Source: Planctomycetaceae bacterium (GTDB lineage: Bacteria > Planctomycetota > Planctomycetia > Pirellulales > UBA1268). From it: DNA of 61,811 nt. A program made the translations under genes and the position numbers. The DNA is taken from contig SXWA01000004.1 of NCBI GenBank assembly GCA_005791575.1, positions 1 to 61,811 of the forward strand, read 5' to 3'. Shown one piece after another: positions 1 to 11,199 of the stretch. Under the pieces are notes generated by a model. That model did not search any database. It was not told the origin of the DNA and worked only from the letters and a program-made list of their open reading frames with translations. Position 1 is the first letter of the stretch. Every line of letters begins with the position of its first letter.

Positions 1-242
1 CCGTGGCCAAAGTCCATCCATGGCCTTTGGCCACTCGAAAAGCTGCGCTTTTCACGGGAGCTGCGCTCCCGGCACCTCATCCATGAGGTGCAGCAGGCTG
101 TTTGGCCACAGCCTGTTAGCAGCCCGTGGCCAAAGTCCATCCATGGCCTTTGGCCACTCGAAAAGCTGCGCTTTTCACGGGAGCTGCGCTCCCGGCACCT
201 CATCCATGAGGTGCAGCAGGCTGTTTGGCCACAGCCTGTTAG
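1..242 (+). mobile_element. Two head-to-tail copies of a 119-bp MITE (first copy truncated by window edge), period 123 bp
   Basis: 1-119 is repeated exactly at 124-242. The full copy (120-238) has TIRs CAGCCCGTGGCCAAA / TTTGGCCACAGCCTG and is flanked by TTAG (116-119, 239-242). Confidence 0.85.
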
Positions 243-577
243 GCCTCGGGAGCAGGGGGCGGCACTGTGCAGGCGGACGGTGGCGAAGGGGACTGTGGCG
301 GGGGAGTACACGGCCCGCCCGCTCAACGGTATCCGGGCGACGGCCCCGGATCTCCACGAACGCTCGGTGCCGACCCTCGCCGCGCTCCCCGAGCCGGCGG
401 CCGGCGACGTTCCATGTTCCATGTCGGGTCGCCGACGATCCCGTCATGATGCCCGACTTCAACACGACCGTGACGACGACCCTCGGCATCGACCCCGCGG
501 CCCGCGAGCAATCGCCGTCGGGCCGCCCCTTCACGATCGCCGGTGACGGGAGACCGGTGCCCGACCTGTTCGCGTGA
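243..577 (+). pseudogene. Remnant of a DUF1501-family (planctomycete) gene
   Basis: The C-terminus VADDPVMMPDFNTTVTTTLGIDP...SPSGRPFTIAGDGRPVPDLFA* resembles DUF1501 C-termini. The upstream part is in a different frame and much too short. Confidence 0.55.
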
Positions 578-744
578 GGCTGCCCGCGCCGCGGGCCCGC
601 TGGCAGCCTCGACTGCTCGCCGGAACTGCCACACGCCCGTCTCCCGCACCCTCCGCGGTTGAGAAGGCCTCTCCGATGTATGCTCGGGCCGAGTGAACCC
701 GCCATTTCCGCGGATCCTCCGCGCCTTGGCAGCACTACCCGACC

Positions 745-1683
745 ATGAGCCCTGACCCCACACCACCTTCTCCCGCGGCCGACGCCACGCCATCGTCATC
801 CGGCCGGCGGTTCCGGGTGGCGCTGAGCTTCCCGGGGTCGAAGCGCGACCGGGTCGAGCCGATCGCCGCGGCGCTCGCCTGCACGCTCGGAGAGGACTGG
901 GTTCTCTACGATCGCTACCACGAGGCTGAGTTCGCCCGGCCAAATCTCGACGTCTATCTTCCGCAACTTTACCGGACACAATCCGATCTGATCGTCGTGA
1001 TCCTCTGCCCGCAATACGCGGAGCGGCGCTGGTGTGGGCTCGAGCTGCGGCACATCCGCCAACTGCTCGGCACGCCCGAAGAAGCGCGGATCATGTTCCT
1101 GAGCTTCGGAGACCCGGGCGATCTCACCGCCACCGGCGTTCTCGCGGGCGATGGCTACGTGGACATCGAGCGCCGGTCTCCCGCGGAGGCCGCCGCCTTG
1201 ATCCTCGAGCGGCTCGGGCAGGAGATTCCGCGGAAGGAACGGCCTCCTCCTCCGGACCCCCGGCCGCCGAAGCTCCGGCTGCAGCGCCCAGCTGGGATGC
1301 TCACCCTCGCGGCGGGGCTCGGGATCGCCGCGGCGGCCTGGGGCATGGCGGCGTGGCGAGCGCATGTCTGCGCCGGGCTCTCCCGGCTGGGCTTCCATGT
1401 GCTCGCTTGCGAGACGAGCCTCGAGGCCGAGCGCATCGCCGCGCTGCACCCTGCCGCACACTTCGCCGCGCCGCCGGCCCTCCCGGCCGAAGATGGGCCA
1501 CGCTCGGAAAAGTGGCTCGTGGAGAACAGGAGCCACCGGCCGGTGGGAGTGTTGTTTGGAAAGCTGCGGGCTGCCGGCAGCGGCACACGGGAGGCCGACT
1601 CGTGGGAGAAGCTCACGATTCCCGCCGAGAAAGTCACGGAATGGTCCACGGGGGAGGAGCCCGCCGGTCGTTCCGGAGTGTGA
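745..1683 (+). CDS. TIR-domain (TIR_2-like) protein with one TM helix and a C-terminal extracytoplasmic domain; frame continues past the TGA to a TAG at 1878
   Basis: FRVALSFPG..., VLYDRY, LYRTQSDLIVVILCPQYAERRWCGLE (catalytic-type Glu codon 1042-1044), Pro-rich linker, hydrophobic AGMLTLAAGLGIAAAAWGMAAW. Confidence 0.85.
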   Translation: MSPDPTPPSPAADATPSSSGRRFRVALSFPGSKRDRVEPIAAALACTLGEDWVLYDRYHEAEFARPNLDVYLPQLYRTQSDLIVVILCPQYAERRWCGLELRHIRQLLGTPEEARIMFLSFGDPGDLTATGVLAGDGYVDIERRSPAEAAALILERLGQEIPRKERPPPPDPRPPKLRLQRPAGMLTLAAGLGIAAAAWGMAAWRAHVCAGLSRLGFHVLACETSLEAERIAALHPAAHFAAPPALPAEDGPRSEKWLVENRSHRPVGVLFGKLRAAGSGTREADSWEKLTIPAEKVTEWSTGEEPAGRSGV

Positions 1684-1892
1684 GTCGTCGCGGTCTACGA
1701 CCCCGCCGATCCGTGGACGCTGCTCGCGCCGCTACGGCCGCTGCGGCTGCTCTTCCGCACCGCCGCCGAGCAGGAGGGCCACGCCGACGTCAGTGCCCTG
1801 TCGCTCATCATCCAGGAGGGTGGCGGCTCCTCTCCGCTGGACATCCACCAGGATCCCGAACTTCGCATCACGCCCTAGTGAGAAACCACGTC

Positions 1893-2939
1893 ATGAGTGC
1901 CGTTCCTTCGTCGACCGGGCGAAAGCCTTCTCGCCTCCGCTGCGCGGCGGCCTGGCTCACGTGCTGCGGCTTCTCGGTGCCGATGGCGGCCGTCGCCCTG
2001 GAGCCCTTCATGCTCCGCAACGACGTTGGGGAGACGGCGCGGTTCGACTTCCTCGACACCGGCCTCGACTGGCGGGAGAGGCGACCGCTCGTGCCGCCGA
2101 AGTGGGTGCAGCCGGGACGGCAGGCGGAGGTGAGCCTTCCCGACCGTGACACCGTGGCTTTCCGGTACACGACGCTGAACAACCGGGCGAGCAGCACGAT
2201 TCTCTGGCAGGCGCAGCAGGCGTTGGCGTCGATCAACCCGAAGCCCGTGACGGTGACCTTCAAGGGGATCAGCGAGCGGATGGTGACCGAGGAGCGCACG
2301 CGGACGATGTCGGTGACGAAACAGGTGCCCGAGACCCGCACGAAAAAGGTCACCGTCACGAAGTACCGCGACGAGCAGCGGGTGCGGAAGATCGCCGTCC
2401 GCGACCCGGCCACGGGCCGGGTGACGTATCGCGACGAGCGGTACACCGTTCGTGTGCCCTACACGGAGGAGGTGGAGCAGACGTTCACGGTCAACGTGCC
2501 GGTCATGGAGCAGAAAACGCAGACCTACACCGTGCAGGTGCCGAGGTCCGAAGCCGTCTTCGACATCGGTGGCACGGCCGTCACCGCACCCGTGCTTTCC
2601 GCCGCGGGGGGGGACGGGCCGCGACTCATTCTGGGGGTGACACTCGGCGATGTGAATGGCGCACTCGTGACGGGAGTGGACGCCGGGTCTCCCGCCACCC
2701 GCATGAGGCTCTTCGGCCCGGATGCGGACGAAAACAAGCGTTACGCACTCGAGCCGAACGTCGATCGGATCGTGCGGATCAACGGGTCCGCCGTACGGAC
2801 GGGTGCCGAGGTCGCCGCCGCGGTGCAGAAATCGCCCGCGTCGTGCATCGTCACGGTGTCCAATCGGACGGGCGAGGAGACGTTCGAGGTCGAACTCGAG
2901 CCGGCGGCGGAGAACGACGCGCCGGCCCCCGGAAAGTGA
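1893..2939 (+). CDS. Secreted protein with YTV-like repeats and a C-terminal PDZ-like domain
   Basis: Signal-peptide-like N-terminus; T/V/K/E-rich repeats (RYTVRVPYTEEVEQTFTV, QTYTVQVP); PDZ-like LILGVTL...GALVTGVDAGSPA...DRIVRING. The ATG at 1893 is in frame with ORF 1032-2939. Confidence 0.7.
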   Translation: MSAVPSSTGRKPSRLRCAAAWLTCCGFSVPMAAVALEPFMLRNDVGETARFDFLDTGLDWRERRPLVPPKWVQPGRQAEVSLPDRDTVAFRYTTLNNRASSTILWQAQQALASINPKPVTVTFKGISERMVTEERTRTMSVTKQVPETRTKKVTVTKYRDEQRVRKIAVRDPATGRVTYRDERYTVRVPYTEEVEQTFTVNVPVMEQKTQTYTVQVPRSEAVFDIGGTAVTAPVLSAAGGDGPRLILGVTLGDVNGALVTGVDAGSPATRMRLFGPDADENKRYALEPNVDRIVRINGSAVRTGAEVAAAVQKSPASCIVTVSNRTGEETFEVELEPAAENDAPAPGK

Positions 2940-3178
2940 TCGGTCCCACGACGACGTCGGCATCCAGGAGGCTGACGACATGCCTGGTGTGGCCTCGGGA
3001 TGGACATCCCCGATCGACGGGAAGTCGTGCAGCGAGAGGCAGCCGGCCTCCCCCTGCGACGGCTTGCCGAGCATCAGGACCGCGGCGGGATTTTCTGTCG
3101 TCGCATCGTGATGCCCTACGCCCACGTCGCCGTCCGGATCGTCGACGACATCGTGAAACGCCCGGGAGTCTATCAGTG

Positions 3179-4924
3179 ATGGCACGAGGAAATCTGGTGG
3201 GGGTGAGGGTCTGCCTGAGTGCGTCGCTCGCCGATGACATGCGGCCCGCGCCGCGAACCGACACGGCCGAGTTCATCGCGCAACTCGCCCGCGCCGTCTT
3301 CCGCGAAGGGGGACACGTCGTGCACGGGAGCCATCCGTCGATCGTGCCACTCCTCGCCGCGGTGGCCAAGGAGACGTTTCCCGACGGCGGGGCGACGAGC
3401 CGGCTCACGCTCGTCCGGGCAGCGACGTTTTCCGGCGAGCAGTATGCCGGCGCCATCGAAGCCGATCGGGCCTTCGCCCGGGTCGAACTGATCCCAGCCG
3501 CGACGCCCGCGGAGGAGGACGCCGCCCGCGCCGAAATTCGCGACCTGGTGCCGATGCGCGACTGGATGGCCGACCGGTGCGACGTCGTCGTGGCGCTCGG
3601 GGGACGATGGTTCGACCGGGATGCCGAGCGGGCGGGAATACCGATCGAGATCGACGCCTTTCTCGAACGCGGCAAGCCGGCCTTCGTGATCACCGCGTGC
3701 GGTGGTGCGGCGGCGGGATACGCGGAGGCCGATCCCGGGCTCTCCGGCCGGCTCCACAACGGCCTCGACGCCACCGCGAACCGGGCCCTCGACAGCGAAC
3801 TCGCCGACGAGTCCTGCCAGCCGGCCGCGGCGGCCGGGGTCGCGGAGAAGATCGTGAAGCAGATCGGGCTGCTACCACTGCCAAGCCGCCGGATTCAGGT
3901 GCGGTCCACGGCCGCGGCCCCACCGCGCAGCAGGTCCGTGAGGGCCGCAATCTCCGGCACGGCGCCTGAGCCGCCCCCGCGTGACACCTTCCGCATCCTC
4001 TGCCTCGACGGCGGCGGGATCCGCGGGGCGTTCACGGCGGCGGTCCTCGCGACCTGGGCCGACATGCTCCCGAAGACGGCGGGGCAGCCGCTGTTCGTCG
4101 ATCGATTCGACCTCGTGGCCGGGACGTCGACTGGCAGCATCCTCGCCGTCGGGCTGGCACTCGGGCTCACGCCGGGGGAATTGGTCGAGCTTTACCGGGA
4201 GCATGCCGAGAAGATTTTTCCGCGGAAGAGCGGACTGTCGATCGTGTTCTCGAGGAAATACGACTCCGCGCCGCTCCGCGCGGCGCTCGAGACCTACCTC
4301 GGCGACAAGGTGTTTACCGAGGCGAAACGCCCGCTCGTGATCCCGACCGTGTCGGCCGTCCACGGGGAGGCGGTGCTGATCACCACACCGCACTCCCCGG
4401 ATCGCACCGCACACCGCGACATGAAGGCCGTCGAGGCAATCCTGGCTTCGGCAGCGGCTCCCGCTTTTTTCGCCGATGCCAACGTGGACGGGCCGATCGC
4501 GAGCGGCACGTACATCGATGGCGGCATGTGGGCCAACAACCCCGTGCTGCCGGCCATCATCGAGGCGATCGGGTATCTCGGCACCACCGCCGACCGGATC
4601 GACATCCTCAGCCTGGGCACGATGGCCACGGAATACGACTTCAGCAAGGCGCTCGGTGGGGGGTTGGCCCAGTGGGGGCCGCGGATTTCCGACCTGTTCT
4701 TCGCGGCCCAGGAGACGGGCGCCGCCGAGATGGCCCGGACTTTCCTCGGCGATGCGCGGCTCCTGCGGATCAACGACTTCACCAAGAACCTCCCCACCCT
4801 CGACGACGCGCAGGCCGTCTCCGCCCTCGTCGAACGCGGCCAGCAGATCGGCCGGAAGACCTTCCCCTCCGTCCGCAGCCGGTTCCTGGAGGGGCCGCCG
4901 GCCCCGGCATCGGCGATGCACTGA
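3179..4924 (+). CDS. SLOG domain fused to a patatin-like (CapV-like) phospholipase
   Basis: N-half: VCLSAS, GGHVVHGSHPSI, MRDWM..CDVVVALGG, GIPIEI, GKPAFVITACGGAA (SLOG). C-half: DGGGIRG, GTSTG, DGGMWANNP (intact patatin motifs). Confidence 0.85.
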   Translation: MARGNLVGVRVCLSASLADDMRPAPRTDTAEFIAQLARAVFREGGHVVHGSHPSIVPLLAAVAKETFPDGGATSRLTLVRAATFSGEQYAGAIEADRAFARVELIPAATPAEEDAARAEIRDLVPMRDWMADRCDVVVALGGRWFDRDAERAGIPIEIDAFLERGKPAFVITACGGAAAGYAEADPGLSGRLHNGLDATANRALDSELADESCQPAAAAGVAEKIVKQIGLLPLPSRRIQVRSTAAAPPRSRSVRAAISGTAPEPPPRDTFRILCLDGGGIRGAFTAAVLATWADMLPKTAGQPLFVDRFDLVAGTSTGSILAVGLALGLTPGELVELYREHAEKIFPRKSGLSIVFSRKYDSAPLRAALETYLGDKVFTEAKRPLVIPTVSAVHGEAVLITTPHSPDRTAHRDMKAVEAILASAAAPAFFADANVDGPIASGTYIDGGMWANNPVLPAIIEAIGYLGTTADRIDILSLGTMATEYDFSKALGGGLAQWGPRISDLFFAAQETGAAEMARTFLGDARLLRINDFTKNLPTLDDAQAVSALVERGQQIGRKTFPSVRSRFLEGPPAPASAMH

Positions 4925-5058
4925 TCATCGGGCGCCGCCGCCACGCGCTTCTACGGGACGCGTGGCGGCGGGCGACTCGCTGGCGAGCCGCCTGTACAGG
5001 GCGGGGGCCCGCAGTTCGCGGAGCCAGAAGCCCACGGCGGCCGGGCGTCGCCCACCGC

Positions 5059-5976
5059 TCACTCCAGGTGCAGCGGCTCGGGCATGAAGGTGACCAGCGG
5101 GATGACGAGCGAACAGAGCCCGAGCACCGTCCGGAAGCGGTCGAGCGACTGCCCCTCCTCGCGGATCGGCGGATGGTCGGCACCGATCACGGTCACCAGC
5201 ACCACCATGATGATCCAGTTGTAGCGGCCGAGGAACACGATCCCGGCGATCGACGCGCAGAGCAGGCTCCGCGCCAACCAGTTGGCCCGCGGGCCGAACA
5301 GGGCATACACCACATGCCCGCCGTCGAGTTGGCTGATCGGGATCATGTTGAGGCCGGTGACGAGCAAGCCCACCCAGCCGGCCATGTAGAGCGGGTTCGG
5401 CGCGATGCCGCCGCCGGAGAGGAGGTCGGGCCGGACCAGTGCCATCAGCCAGCGGGCCAGCGGCGGCATCGCGAAGAGCGGATCACTGCTCGGGGTGCCG
5501 AGCACCATGCCCGCCACCAGCGCCGGCACCGCGAGGACGAGCCCCGCCAGCGGACCCGCGATGGCGATGTCGAAGAGTTGGCGGCGGTTCGCCCGCGACC
5601 CCTCCATGCCGATCACCGCGCCGAGCGTGCCGGTGAGCATCACCGGCACGGGGAGGAAGAACGGGAGCGTCGCGGGGATCCGGTGGATGCCTGCGGCGAC
5701 GAAGTGACCAGCCTCGTGGGCGCCGAGCACCGCCAGCACCGCCAGCATGTAGGCCAGCCCCCGGCCCCAATGCAGCGGCACCTGCGCCGCAAGGTCGGCG
5801 TCGACCCCCAGCACGAGCGGCTGCCAGCCCACCACCCCGGCGGCGAAGGTCGTGGCTGCAGTCGCCAGCCAGAGCAGCGCCTGCCACGGCACCCGGGGCC
5901 ACCGCCACCTCCCCGGGAGCACGATCAACGGGTCGATCGCCGGCAACGGGTCGATGGCGGGTGGGGAGGAAGCCAT
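5059..5976 (-). CDS. Site-2 protease (M50 family) intramembrane metalloprotease
   Basis: HEAGH, IAIAGPLAG and NMIPISQLDGGH motifs; several TM helices. Confidence 0.9.
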   Translation of the reverse strand: MASSPPAIDPLPAIDPLIVLPGRWRWPRVPWQALLWLATAATTFAAGVVGWQPLVLGVDADLAAQVPLHWGRGLAYMLAVLAVLGAHEAGHFVAAGIHRIPATLPFFLPVPVMLTGTLGAVIGMEGSRANRRQLFDIAIAGPLAGLVLAVPALVAGMVLGTPSSDPLFAMPPLARWLMALVRPDLLSGGGIAPNPLYMAGWVGLLVTGLNMIPISQLDGGHVVYALFGPRANWLARSLLCASIAGIVFLGRYNWIIMVVLVTVIGADHPPIREEGQSLDRFRTVLGLCSLVIPLVTFMPEPLHLE

Positions 5977-5997
5977 GGTTGTCAGAATACTGCTTAG

Positions 5998-6116
5998 CAG
6001 GCTGTGGACAAACAGCCTGCTGCACCTCATGGATGAGGTGCCGGGAGCGAAACTCCCGTGAAAACCGCAGGTTTTCGTGTGGCCAAAGGCCAGGGATGGA
6101 CTTTGGCCACGGGCTG
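5998..6116 (-). mobile_element. 119-bp MITE copy
   Basis: Reverse-complement homologue of 120-238, flanked by TTAG (5994-5997 and 6117-6120), in a divergent intergenic region. Confidence 0.85.
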
Positions 6117-6185
6117 TTAGCGCGGGGGGTGGTAAACTACTGGCCCTTCTCCGCTGAGACCCTCCAGAATTTTCGGAGCTTCCTG

Positions 6186-7835
6186 ATGCCCAGCCTCCGC
6201 GCAATGTTCCCGTGTTCTGCCCTGCTCCCGTGCCTCGCGATCGCCACGCTGCTGCCGGCGGCCGTGGCACCGGCGGCGCGGGCCCAGGAACCCCGCCAGC
6301 GCGAGGTGATCGCCGTCATCGCGCTCGACAGCTACGGCGACGTGAAAAAACAGCTCTCGTGGCTCGGTCCGCACCTCGACAACCCCAATCTCGCCGGCTT
6401 CCTCGAATCGTCGCTCCTCCTCGCGACCCAGGGCCGGGGGCTCGCCGGGCTCGACGTCCGGCGCCCGATCGGCGTGGTGGTGACCAGCGACGGAGCCGAC
6501 ATCGCCGCCCACGGCATGCTCCCGGTGAAGGACCTCGACAAGCTCCTCGATTCGCTCCAGGGGGTGACCGGGCGGGTGGAGAAGTCGGGAGAGCGGCGGC
6601 GTCTGTCCCTCAACGGCGGCATGGACGTGGACGTTGTCGAGCGTGAGGGATGGGCGATCATCGGCCAGGCCGGCAGCCAGGCCCCTGCGGCCGATCCGCT
6701 CGCCATCCTCGAGCCGCTCGCCGGGGAATACTCCCTCGTCATCAAGGCGTTCCCCAGCCGGCTTCCCGAGGGAATCAAGGCGCTGCTGCAAAACGCGCTG
6801 CGCCAACTCGCGCAGTCGGCCGCCGCCGAGGGCCGCGCGGTCGATGCCGATGCCCTTGCGGCCGCCATCGACGGGATCGGCGGCCTCGAGTCGCTCCTCG
6901 TCGGCCTGGGGATCGACGATGGGAAGAACCGGATCTTCCTCGAGAACCGTGCCGTGGCACTGACCGGCAATGAGGCTGCGGGAACAGGGCCACTCACCGT
7001 GGGCCGCGTGCCGACTGCCGACGGTGGTCCCGCCGCCGTGCGGGCCGAGATGGCGCAGTCGCTCTCCGACTCTGAGCAGCGCCGTGTGCTGGCGCTGCTC
7101 GACGGGGCCTTGCCGGGCGCCGATGCCGACCAGGCGGGGCGGATCATCGGCGGTGTCGTCCGCGCCATCGCCAGGGCCATGGTCAGTTCGGGGGCGATCG
7201 ACGGGGCGCTGACGCTCGACACGTCGGCGAAGGAACGGGGGCCAACCCTCTCGGCGGGGATGCGGGTCAAGGACGGCGCGGCGCTCGAGAAGCAGGTGAA
7301 GGAACTGCTCGGTCCCGGTGCCGGCCTGCCGGGATCGGTGGACGTGCGGTTCGACGCCGGCAAGGCGGGCGATGCCAACCTCCACACCGTGGCGGTCGAT
7401 CTCGGCGGCACGCCGGGGTCGGAGATGCTCGGCCGCCCGCTCGCATTCACCCTCGCCGTCGCCCCCGGCTACGCCTACCTGCTCGAGGGTGGCGACGCGA
7501 AGAGCCGCCTCGCCGACCTGCAGAAGGGGACCGGACGACCGGTGAGCGGTGCCCCGAGTGGCGTGACGCTCAAAGTCGCCCTCGACGAATTGCTCTCCTT
7601 CGCCGCCACGAAGGCGGGCGGGGAGATGGCGAACAAGGCGGCGGCGCGTGCCGCCAGCCTCCTCGATACCGATGCCGAGTCGGCCCTCGTGCAGCTGGCG
7701 ATCAGTCCGATCGACCGCGGCGTGGCGACCCGGCTGTCGCTCGGCGCCGGGGTGCTGCGCGGTCTGGCCACGCTCTCGAGCGAGGCCGCGGCGGCGGGGA
7801 TCGGACTGCCGGTGCCGGATGGGCTCGGTCGCTGA
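6186..7835 (+). CDS. Secreted/periplasmic hypothetical protein
   Basis: Long ORF with GC3-rich codons and a signal peptide ending in ARA-Q. Confidence 0.75.
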   Translation: MPSLRAMFPCSALLPCLAIATLLPAAVAPAARAQEPRQREVIAVIALDSYGDVKKQLSWLGPHLDNPNLAGFLESSLLLATQGRGLAGLDVRRPIGVVVTSDGADIAAHGMLPVKDLDKLLDSLQGVTGRVEKSGERRRLSLNGGMDVDVVEREGWAIIGQAGSQAPAADPLAILEPLAGEYSLVIKAFPSRLPEGIKALLQNALRQLAQSAAAEGRAVDADALAAAIDGIGGLESLLVGLGIDDGKNRIFLENRAVALTGNEAAGTGPLTVGRVPTADGGPAAVRAEMAQSLSDSEQRRVLALLDGALPGADADQAGRIIGGVVRAIARAMVSSGAIDGALTLDTSAKERGPTLSAGMRVKDGAALEKQVKELLGPGAGLPGSVDVRFDAGKAGDANLHTVAVDLGGTPGSEMLGRPLAFTLAVAPGYAYLLEGGDAKSRLADLQKGTGRPVSGAPSGVTLKVALDELLSFAATKAGGEMANKAAARAASLLDTDAESALVQLAISPIDRGVATRLSLGAGVLRGLATLSSEAAAAGIGLPVPDGLGR

Positions 7836-9999: not shown

Positions 10000-11199
10000 A
10001 TGGCCCCTCCCCCCTCGTCTGAACCTGCCCACCCATCCGCCAACGGTTCCACCTCCGGAAGCGATGGCGCCGCCCACGCACCCGGCATGCTGCGCGACCA
10101 TGTCCGCTTGGCGTGCGTGCCGGGAATCGGCTCCCGCCTGCGGCGCCTGCTCCTCGAGCGGTTCGGTTCACCGGCAGCGGTGTTCGCGGCAGCACCCGCC
10201 GACATCATCGGCATCGGTCGGATCAGCCGTCGTTTGGCGACCGATCTTCCCCGGCTGGTCAGCGAGTCGGACGCCGACGCACTCCTCGGGATCTGTCACC
10301 GGGAGGGAGTCCGCATCCTGCTCGAGGGTGATCGCGACTACCCACCCCTGCTCGCCCGGATCCCCGACCCTCCCGGAGTGCTGTTCGTGCGCGGCGGTTT
10401 CGCCCCCAGCGATGCGCTGGCGGTGGCGATCGTCGGCAGCCGTCACGCGACCGACTACGGCATGCGGGTCGCCGGCCAACTCGCCGGCGGACTTTCCCGG
10501 GCCGGCTACACGGTCGTCAGCGGACTGGCCCGCGGCATCGACGCCGCAGCCCACCGCGGGGCGCTCGCCGCCGGCGGGCGGACGATCGCCGTGCTCGGCA
10601 GTGGCGTGCTGGAGGTCTACCCACCGGAGCATCGTGGACTGGCCGAGGAGGTCATCGCCCACGGGGCCCTGCTGAGCGAAGCGCCGCCGCTGGCGGAACC
10701 GCATCCCGGGGCATTCCCCCAACGCAACCGGATCGTGTCGGGGCTGTCGCTCGGCACGGTCGTGGTGCAGGCCTCGGGGCGCTCCGGCGCCCTGATCACC
10801 GCCCGCCTCGCCACGGAGCAGGGGCGGGAGGTGTTCGCCGTCCCGGGGCCGATCGACTGCCGGATGTCGCTGGGCTGCCACGATCTGCTCCGCGACGGGG
10901 CGACCCTCGTGTCGAGCGTCGACGACATCCTGGCGGAGCTCGGCCCACTGTTCGAGACCGCCACATCGGCCGCCGGCGACATGGTGGAAAGCCCCGCCGA
11001 ATTGGCCCTCGACGAACAGGAGCGGACGGTCCTGAAGGCGATCGCACCGGCAGGGAGCCGTCGGGGCGAGCCACGGCTTGTCGACGATGTGGTCGATTCC
11101 ACCGGCCTGGCGGCATCGCAGGTGCTCGCGACGATCGGCGTGCTGGAGATGCGACGGCTGGTGAAACGCCTCCCGGGCAACCGCGTGGCGCGGGCCTGA
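10000..11199 (+). CDS. dprA: DNA-processing protein DprA
   Basis: YPPLLARIPDPP, VAIVGSR, VVSGLARGID, FPQRNRIVSGLS, SGALITA, GREVFAVPG; C-terminal winged helix. Confidence 0.95.
   Translation: MAPPPSSEPAHPSANGSTSGSDGAAHAPGMLRDHVRLACVPGIGSRLRRLLLERFGSPAAVFAAAPADIIGIGRISRRLATDLPRLVSESDADALLGICHREGVRILLEGDRDYPPLLARIPDPPGVLFVRGGFAPSDALAVAIVGSRHATDYGMRVAGQLAGGLSRAGYTVVSGLARGIDAAAHRGALAAGGRTIAVLGSGVLEVYPPEHRGLAEEVIAHGALLSEAPPLAEPHPGAFPQRNRIVSGLSLGTVVVQASGRSGALITARLATEQGREVFAVPGPIDCRMSLGCHDLLRDGATLVSSVDDILAELGPLFETATSAAGDMVESPAELALDEQERTVLKAIAPAGSRRGEPRLVDDVVDSTGLAASQVLATIGVLEMRRLVKRLPGNRVARA

Follow-up and report, generated by a model that had tools for sequence, protein, structure and literature searches.

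The fusion gene and its product

The window analyzed here is the whole of a 61,811-nucleotide stretch of the Planctomycetaceae bacterium contig SXWA01000004.1 (assembly GCA_005791575.1; source genome 70% G+C), and this study concerns one of its genes, which encodes a fusion of a SLOG domain to a patatin-like phospholipase. The gene lies at 3179..4924 on the + strand as an open frame without internal stop, and its 581-residue product (P0001) begins with a SLOG domain, from which a disordered linker rich in Pro and Arg leads to a complete patatin lipase of the CapV-like kind. The G+C content at third codon positions (GC3) is 0.87 within the gene, with the onset of the signal at about 3150-3180. 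The frame can be extended upstream to a GTG at 2843; because the GC3 signal is absent from this extension, the ATG at 3179 is likely the start codon, and comparison of N-termini showed that the homologues of P0001 begin at the same Met. Judged by the scores of the Pfam, NCBIfam, and PADLOC profiles, including the PADLOC models of phospholipase effectors (E-value 3e-79), the domain matches are far beyond chance. An AlphaFold model of the full-length protein, built from 56 sequences, had a predicted local distance difference test score (pLDDT) of 83.7 and a predicted template modeling score (pTM) of 0.85.

The CapV-like patatin phospholipase domain comprises residues 271-581 (3989..4921, + strand). 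It matched the Pfam hidden Markov model (HMM) for Patatin (PF01734) over its entire length (residues 274-460, profile positions 1-191 of 191; E-value 1e-32; 114.3 bits against a cut-off of 27.7) and the NCBIfam equivalog CBASS_lipase (NF041079; residues 271-556, profile positions 1-290 of 317; 215.5 bits against a cut-off of 200). Patatins are recognized by a Gly-rich oxyanion motif, a GxSxG motif holding the nucleophile, and a DG[GA] motif holding the catalytic Asp. An initial annotation made from the letters of the DNA had named all three, and all are present: the oxyanion/phosphate motif DGGGIRG at residues 277-283 (4007..4027, +), Ser317 as the nucleophile (4127..4129, +) in GTSTG at 315-319, and Asp447 (4517..4519, +) in DGG at 447-449. 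The residues D277, G278-G280, R282, and G283 of the first motif and the GTSTG and DGG motifs are invariant in 56 homologues. When the full family profile was run against solved structures, it reached the CapV chains 9wn0, 9kh7, and 8zr9 with E-values of 5e-55 to 6e-43 in its patatin part alone, and pairwise comparison with solved CapV chains aligned the lipase part over its whole length (E-values 2e-29 to 4e-41), placing R282, S317, and D447 on R21, S58, and D192 of AbCapV. By these motifs and alignments the Ser-Asp lipase of the CapV type is intact in P0001, and phospholipase activity is predicted.

CapV is known as an effector of the cyclic-oligonucleotide-based antiphage signaling system (CBASS) that responds to cyclic GMP-AMP (cGAMP), and P0001 shares with it the whole patatin module and probably, by analogy with the account in the available text on AbCapV, the hydrolysis of membrane phospholipids after ligand-driven assembly (PMC12480259). 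The same text gives F147, K149, D159, E207, and R279 as the cGAMP contacts of AbCapV and reports that their mutation abolishes activity (PMC12480259). In a hand count on one printed pairwise alignment (to 8zr9), the numbering of which fits R21, S58, and D192 of that paper, the first four of these residues align with L400, T402, H412, and E462 of P0001, and R279 lies outside the alignment. Two of the four mappable contacts are thus lost (K149 to Thr402 and D159 to His412), and columns 402 and 412 vary within the SLOG-patatin family (56 homologues), whereas the CapV-like solved chain 9wn0 retains Lys and Asp at these positions. The two proteins also differ in that CapV is a single-domain protein that is itself the binder of cGAMP and has as its partner a nucleotidyltransferase of the cGAS/DncV-like type (CD-NTase), whereas P0001 carries an added N-terminal SLOG domain of 235 residues and has TIR rather than CD-NTase neighbors.

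The two domains are joined by a linker at residues 233-270 (3875..3988, +) that is rich in Pro, Arg, Ser, and Ala (of its 38 residues, 8 are P, 7 are R, 5 are S, and 6 are A), as the initial annotation had it for Pro and Arg. It is predicted to be disordered, with pLDDT below 50 at residues 243-261 of the full-length model, and is approximately 35 residues longer than in proteobacterial homologues.

The SLOG domain, a probable sensor

Residues 1-235 (3179..3883, +) were assigned to a SLOG domain of the LD_cluster2 type, the predicted sensor. The Pfam HMM LD_cluster2 (PF18163) was matched above its cut-off (28.2 bits against 25.3), the match covering residues 122-184 only; LD_cluster3 was matched weakly (14 bits), and the Pfam scan gave no match to STALD or SIR2. 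The NCBIfam model Thoeris_type3_ThcA was reached below its cut-off (28.4-30.6 bits against 110; E-value 1.1e-6; residues 13-187). The hallmark motifs that the initial annotation had read in this part of the protein are all found: LSAS at 13-16, GSHPSI at 50-55, MRDWM at 126-130, VVALGG at 137-142, GIPIE at 153-157, GKPAFV at 165-170, and GGAA at 175-178. An AlphaFold model of the domain, based on an N-terminal alignment of 38 sequences, had a mean pLDDT of 92.9 and a pTM of 0.91 and showed an alternating strand-helix fold. The proposal of a SLOG domain of the LD_cluster2/3 kind had been made to depend on the N-terminal part modeling as a SLOG fold, and this is the fold that the model took.

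Structural searches with this model placed the SLOG domains of ThsA on top. The best Foldseek match was 7uxs, the BcThsA SLOG domain with 3' cyclic ADP-ribose (3'cADPR), with an E-value of 7e-7, and VIA-align superposed the model on this entry with a Z-score of 16.3 and a root-mean-square deviation of 3.0 over 176 of 194 residues. The five best VIA-align matches are all ThsA SLOG entries (Z 15.5-16.3), and ThsA entries overall score Z 15.0-16.3 at 16-18% identity. Other proteins with the SLOG fold follow, among them TM1055 (15.1), LOG (about 13), DprA (about 12), and the ADP-ribose-binding domain of TRPM2 (11-12); LOG and PpnN together span Z 11-13.6. The model firmly indicates that the N-terminal domain has the SLOG fold, and it puts ThsA ahead of LOG and DprA. 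Because the gap between ThsA and LOG is just 1-3 Z units, the apparent closeness to ThsA is only a lead.

At the sequence level, a profile search of solved structures with the SLOG alignment reached ThsA weakly (E-values 0.04-1.1). In this weak alignment the SGS, R, GG, G-x3-E, and GGA motifs of the family fall on their ThsA counterparts, with S14-A15-S16, R127, G142, G153-x3-E157, and G175-G176-A177 of P0001 on the ThsA motifs and the Lys equivalent offset by one residue. Across 56 homologues there is no variation at R127, G142, G153, E157, and G176, and S14, G141, G175, and A177 are nearly invariant. For comparison, the contacts of BcThsA to 3'cADPR given in the available text of Manik et al. 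are S290, R371, K388, and E403, together with the backbone atoms of G289 and of G399 (10.1101/2022.05.07.491051). ThsA, the SIR2-SLOG effector of type I Thoeris (6lhx, 7uxs, 8bto), resembles P0001 in being the best structural match to its SLOG domain, apparently in the Ser, Arg, Gly-rich, and Glu motifs that the weak alignment pairs, and in being TIR-partnered. It differs in its effector, a SIR2 NADase in place of a patatin, in the order of its domains, which is reversed in P0001, where SLOG is N-terminal, and in the low identity; the P0001 domain belongs to LD_cluster2 rather than STALD.

A widespread SLOG-patatin family

Homologues were sought among 5.8 billion proteins; 8000 candidates were scored, 639 relatives were found, and 120 of these were listed. 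Both PF18163 and PF01734 are matched by 116 of the 120 and PF01734 only by the other four. Most are about 538 residues long, and their hosts include Pseudomonas, Vibrio, Shewanella, Aeromonas, Burkholderia, and others. The architecture is therefore not new: it is a common, computationally known family already present in databases. A frequent NCBI name for its members is "CBASS cGAMP-activated phospholipase", which likely stems from NF041079 passing its cut-off on the patatin part alone. Full-text literature searches returned no paper describing or testing a SLOG-patatin protein; van den Berg 2024 and Burroughs 2015 lie outside the coverage of these searches, and we do not claim absence from print.

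The profile of the SLOG domain alone matched 1050 cluster representatives at an E-value of at most 0.001, 324 at 1e-10, and 64 at 1e-30. Ten representatives of unusual length comprise one triple fusion, three truncated SLOG-patatins, one TIR-SLOG protein, one SLOG3-caspase-SLOG2 protein, and four without another Pfam domain. SLOG3-SLOG2-patatin triple fusions are represented by P0092 and P0244; the 623-residue P0357 joins TIR_2 to a SLOG domain of the same clade, and the 799-residue P0351 has the order SLOG3-caspase (Peptidase_C14)-SLOG2, again with this clade. Since the same SLOG clade is fused to patatin and to caspase effectors, these architectures fit a sensor module exchanged among effectors.

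Gene neighborhoods of the family

Loci were collected from genomes (77) and metagenomes (80), and 73 of them, including the window, hold a full-length fusion gene. Clustering of the neighboring genes at 49 loci revealed three conserved same-strand partners: upstream, one that recurs at 36 loci, and downstream, two that recur at 27 and 22 loci. At the locus L002 these partners are a ThsB_TIR protein, a TIR protein, and an LD_cluster3 protein; the latter two, whose genes lie downstream of the fusion gene, scored with NCBIfam as ThcB4 (470 bits, cut-off 220) and ThcA (251 bits, cut-off 110), respectively. HMMs built from the neighbor clusters detected a TIR-like gene within 5 kb at 59 of the 73 loci and a ThcA-like gene, usually together with a ThcB4-like gene, at 44, counts that are not independent, as near-duplicate or closely related loci are numerous in the set. 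Where these HMMs gave no TIR hit (14 loci), flanking sequence is almost absent at three (L042, L081, L096) and short at another four (L030, L031, L035, L043). Another three match Pfam TIR_2 nevertheless (L048, 31.6 bits; L089, 26.1 bits; the window, 25.1 bits), and L090 begins inside a gene for a protein like the TIR protein of the window. An unbiased Pfam tally of 150 of the 203 dereplicated same-strand neighbors gave 29 matches to TIR_2, 23 to ThsB_TIR, 7 to LD_cluster3, 3 to SEFIR, and 2 to TIR. No CD-NTase family was found among the 25 most frequent of the 103 neighbor families; single occurrences below that rank are possible.

Type III Thoeris, with a ThcA SLOG protein and several ThcB TIR proteins, is said to go back to van den Berg et al. 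2024. By gene content, the SLOG-patatin family appears to sit in operons of this kind at the 44 loci with a ThcA-like gene, and the weak ThcA match of the P0001 SLOG domain and the triple fusions with SLOG3 are further likenesses. The window differs, having no ThcA match above cut-off, no ThcB4 match, and one TIR gene instead of several. The accessible part of a recent preprint describes type III Thoeris as several TIR proteins with a SLOG-domain effector, the signaling being uncharacterized (10.64898/2025.12.03.692087), and the part seen of another mentions the type as an operon-based suggestion (10.1101/2024.10.24.620036). Phospholipases are among the 29 putative, predicted types of TIR-adjacent Thoeris effector in the portion of Yirmiya et al. 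2025 that was available; these lie next to TIR genes as here and may include the SLOG-patatin family, and for the verified Thoeris types V-XI that portion names no phospholipase effector (10.64898/2025.12.03.692087). The initial annotation had overlooked the TIR gene 1.3-1.5 kb upstream, the widespread family, and the type III Thoeris-like operons, and it overrated the novelty of the fusion, which is a widespread database family found in such operons.

The loci closest to the window vary in their partners. At L089, which encodes the closest relative (73% identity), the gene directly upstream (L089:1-3762) encodes a ROCO-type protein of more than 1250 residues with LRR-Roc-COR-A and a C-terminal TIR_2-like domain. 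L109 (79% identity, partial) has an LD_cluster3 protein upstream. L090 (64% identity) has, in the same position as in the window, a homologue (59%) of the YTV/PDZ protein described below, and 5' of it the C-terminal end of a protein like the TIR protein of the window (42% over 43 residues, E-value 7e-8), so that the three-gene order of the window is kept at 42-64% protein identity; DUF3800 and DUF4011-helicase genes follow downstream. Defense-type genes near related loci comprise those for TIR proteins, the DUF4011 helicase, DUF3800, and an AbiEii-like AAA_21 ATPase. As a separate observation, a conserved block of Nmad2, MazG_C, and UDG-like genes adjoins SLOG-patatin/TIR operons at 13-17 of the 49 loci (L005:2446-4877 and 12-16 others) and may be a separate nucleotide-modification or defense cassette.

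The TIR gene, its stop codon, and the YTV/PDZ gene

In the window, a TIR gene lies at 745..1878 on the + strand, the same strand as the fusion gene and 1.3-1.5 kb upstream of it, with the annotatable open reading frame (ORF) confined to 745-1683. It was identified by its TIR_2 match and its homologues. The N-terminal 150 residues of its product (P0002) match TIR_2 (PF13676) with 25.1-27 bits, the match spanning positions 1-114 of the 122 in the profile, and PF13676 is found in 101 of 120 listed P0002 homologues. Glu100 in the motif RWCGLEL is invariant in 15 homologues, and it may be the catalytic Glu of the TIR W-C-x-x-E motif. A Pro-rich linker, a 20-residue hydrophobic segment, and a further domain follow the TIR domain. 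The hydrophobic segment, with a Kyte-Doolittle maximum over 19 residues of 1.65 at about residue 194, is conserved in the homologue P0125. A phmmer search of solved structures with P0002 gave no match, and an ESM Atlas sequence search with its C-terminal domain gave best scores of at most 0.82, which is noise level.

Codon 313 of the 377 codons of the TIR gene is an in-frame TGA (1681..1683, +). Trp stands at this position in P0124 (96% identical), in P0125 (50%), and in the L090 fragment, and beyond the TGA the frame runs on to a TAG at 1876-1878, the 64 codons past the stop being 98% identical to P0124. Position 1683 reads G, giving TGG, in the contigs of three of four public sequencing runs (X5, X9, and X13), whose strain differs from the window at about 57 positions in 4301 nucleotides, and the A is kept in X2, with 10 differences. 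Because three of the four runs read TGG, the stop codon is a real strain-level polymorphism, and the sister strain holds the intact allele. The fusion gene has no insertion or deletion in any of the four runs compared.

Between these two genes, starting 14 nucleotides past the TAG of the TIR gene, lies a gene at 1893..2939 (+) for a 348-residue, secreted-looking protein with Planctomycete-type YTV repeats (Pfam YTV, 38.5 bits), a weak PDZ_6 match (22.4 bits), and a signal-peptide-like N-terminus (hydrophobic maximum 1.69 at about residue 27). In X5, X9, and X13 it carries a one-nucleotide deletion at 2077 and a one-nucleotide insertion after 2079, a local change that restores the frame. A minus-strand ORF at 1868-2446 with high GC3 was rejected as the shadow of this gene. 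A predicted complex of P0124 residues 182-353 with residues 36-348 of the YTV/PDZ protein scored 0.00, and as controls were not run this speaks neither for nor against binding. A scan of 200-6400 for promoters and terminators found no + strand site between the three genes, matches inside genes being uninformative, and NCBIfam and PADLOC scans of the neighboring genes of the window gave no matches.

The accessory island

The TIR, YTV/PDZ, and SLOG-patatin genes form a strain-specific island of about 4.8 kb that the fusion gene closes. Four congeners have DNA that matches the window at 76-84% identity, in each case only past about 5050 among the matches listed, and there is no congener DNA match at about 250-5050 among the matches listed, beyond which lie 220 weaker ones. 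No close P0001 orthologue was found in 40 relatives, three of which have 40-50% identical, partly truncated relatives of the protein, and P0002 was found in none of 25. Among 400 sampled genomes of the phylum, no SLOG-patatin fusion (two patatin-only matches) and no further three-gene cassette was found. In the genome assembly to which the window belongs (3.84 Mb, 74.5% complete), the single TIR_2 match is at 817-1185, inside the TIR gene of the window. The same assembly gave no SMODS (CD-NTase) match, no ThsB_TIR match, no ThcA match above cut-off (best 28-31 bits against 110), and no ThcB4 match, the last being a weak test as control genomes were also without matches. The stretch with the fusion gene is present in 20 sequencing runs, which belong to 16 studies of fresh water or lakes; one run is possibly the source of the window itself, and no RNA run is listed among them.

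Several further features lie around the island. A 119-nucleotide unit is repeated in tandem at 1-119 and 124-242 with 100% identity, and an inverted copy (92-93%) is found at 5992-6119, so that inverted copies bracket the island together with an M50 peptidase gene. Dozens of copies in both orientations, often at contig ends, occur in this genome and in congeners, resembling miniature inverted-repeat transposable elements or repetitive extragenic palindromic sequences. The M50 peptidase ORF (5059-6270, - strand) is probably shorter than the longest ORF, as homology to congeners covers 5049-5936 only and the repeat at 5992-6119 falls within the extended ORF. A DprA gene at 10000-11199 (+; DNA_processg_A, 5e-74; weak LDcluster4) encodes a housekeeping member of the SLOG superfamily and belongs to a conserved part of the window that is unrelated to the island.

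A TIR-activated phospholipase as the favored interpretation

We consider it probable that P0001 is a phospholipase effector activated by a TIR-made signal in a Thoeris-like, TIR-based abortive-infection system, given that its SLOG domain appears nearest to that of ThsA, its CapV-type lipase is intact, and the family is linked to TIR genes across many phyla. In the broad sense of Thoeris, the TIR gene at 745-1878 stands on the same strand and one gene away from the effector gene. Upon infection, the TIR protein would turn NAD+ into a signal derived from ADP-ribose, which would bind the SLOG pocket predicted from the alignments (S14/S16, R127, G141-G142, G153-x3-E157, and G175-G176). By analogy with ThsA and CapV, binding would lead to oligomers or filaments and open the phospholipid pocket of the lipase, and the opened lipase would degrade the membrane of its own cell and so stop the spread of phage. 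In the window strain the system may be weakened or off, since the nonsense codon truncates the TIR partner. Filaments induced by cGAMP are described for CapV in the text available (PMC12480259), and helices of ThsA induced by 3'cADPR are indicated by the titles of structure entries. That ligand binding to the SLOG domain gates the lipase, as the initial annotation also proposed, is what we infer.

A number of points weigh against this interpretation. The TIR_2 match of the window TIR is just below the Pfam cut-off of 28 bits. The TIR clade of P0002 is often fused, among the listed homologues, to AAA_16, TPR, or WD40 modules, and in fusions of this sort the TIR may serve to deplete NAD+ as an effector instead of making a signal. 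The TIR gene of the window strain has a premature stop, one gene intervenes between it and the effector gene, and a 239-nucleotide gap precedes the latter. With the cluster-built HMMs no TIR was found at L022, L047, and L087, where the flanks reach 2.6 kb or more, and the relatedness of the loci means that the counts of 59 and 44 in 73 overstate their independence. L087 is the locus of a same-genus paralogue (G004:C336, 3079-10791; 40% identity, 624 residues), upstream of which lies a 743-residue HExxH-type protein that neither matches Pfam nor resembles P0002; with no TIR there, this locus does not support the linkage. The alignment of the ThsA pocket comes from weak profile matches in which the adenine-stacking residues could not be mapped, and the searchable literature holds no experiment on any SLOG-patatin fusion.

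Some of these points would be expected if the TIR protein were not the source of the signal, being instead an independent membrane-anchored NADase or a passenger, with the SLOG-patatin protein answering a housekeeping nucleotide or another signal. The many other C-terminal modules of the TIR clade, the intervening gene, the intact lipase gene beside a broken TIR gene, and the paralogue without a TIR neighbor are consistent with this. The linkage of the family, however, extends across many phyla and to different TIR clades, TIR-SLOG fusions exist, and the sole TIR_2 match of the genome falls within the same island, the gene order of which is kept in L090; we therefore regard this alternative as unlikely.

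A second alternative takes the SLOG domain as an enzyme, a nucleosidase or signal processor like LOG, PpnN, or Cap17, which would make P0001 a two-headed effector or leave the sensing to SLOG proteins of the ThcA type. Strong structural matches include the LOG phosphoribohydrolases as well as the nucleosidase PpnN, and the paralogue at L087, which has an AbiEii-like AAA_21 ATPase nearby, matches the N-terminal ATP nucleosidase domain of Cap17-like proteins and STALD weakly. The standalone SLOG3 protein (ThcA) is moreover called the effector of type III Thoeris in the available part of the preprint (10.64898/2025.12.03.692087). Yet the SLOG domains of the sensor ThsA outrank all enzyme members, the putative ThsA-like pocket motifs are invariant, and fusion of one clade to both patatin and caspase is the pattern of a sensor module, which makes an enzymatic role quite unlikely.

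In a third, P0001 would be a CBASS effector, a CapV lipase that responds to 3'3'-cGAMP or some other product of a CD-NTase, with the SLOG domain as an accessory. The NF041079 score, the PADLOC effector models, the solved CapV chains, and the alignment of E462 with the cGAMP contact E207 all agree with this. Against it stand the conserved neighbors, which are TIR and SLOG genes, the lack of a SMODS match in the incomplete genome and of a CD-NTase among the most frequent neighbor families, and the replacement of K149 and D159 in columns that are variable in the family and kept in 9wn0. The same findings lend support to the suggestion of the initial annotation that the ligand is other than cGAMP. 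We judge a CBASS role very improbable, and the database name given to relatives of P0001, that of a cGAMP-activated lipase, most likely does not apply to it. The cellular roles of patatin-like lipases are many. It is nonetheless scarcely credible that P0001 is a regulated housekeeping lipase of membrane remodeling or lipid turnover without a role in defense; the island itself yielded no genes of phages or mobile elements, but the gene is accessory, as seen in the 40 relatives and the 400 genomes of the phylum, and related loci lie among defense-type genes.

Within the TIR-activated phospholipase interpretation, the cassette might be a three-component, envelope-spanning variant of Thoeris, with a cytoplasmic TIR domain, a periplasmic C-terminal domain of 170 residues, and a secreted YTV/PDZ partner that would be co-transcribed with it. 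The C-terminal domain and the YTV/PDZ protein would sense an event at the envelope, outside-in in the manner of a Toll-like receptor, whereupon a signal made by the cytoplasmic TIR domain would activate the SLOG-patatin lipase. The order kept in L090, the absence of the island from four congeners, the 14-nucleotide spacing of the TIR and PDZ genes, the hydrophobic segment shared by P0002 and P0125, and the signal-peptide-like N-terminus of the PDZ protein suggest this arrangement, which we put forward as a doubtful extension.

What is new here is the linkage of the family to TIR genes and to type III Thoeris-like operons, its likely mis-annotation as CBASS, a minimal cassette in planctomycetes whose TIR protein is predicted to be membrane-anchored and whose PDZ protein looks secreted, and a natural nonsense allele of the TIR gene. 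Automatic annotation as CBASS would hide a large set of TIR-linked systems and inflate CBASS counts. The lipase read-out on this SLOG clade may offer a simple assay for a type III Thoeris-like signal, and the coexistence of intact and nonsense TIR alleles in nature would provide a ready-made comparison. The planctomycete cassette would be a minimal version of such systems, with one TIR gene as opposed to four or five, that persists in lake metagenomes.

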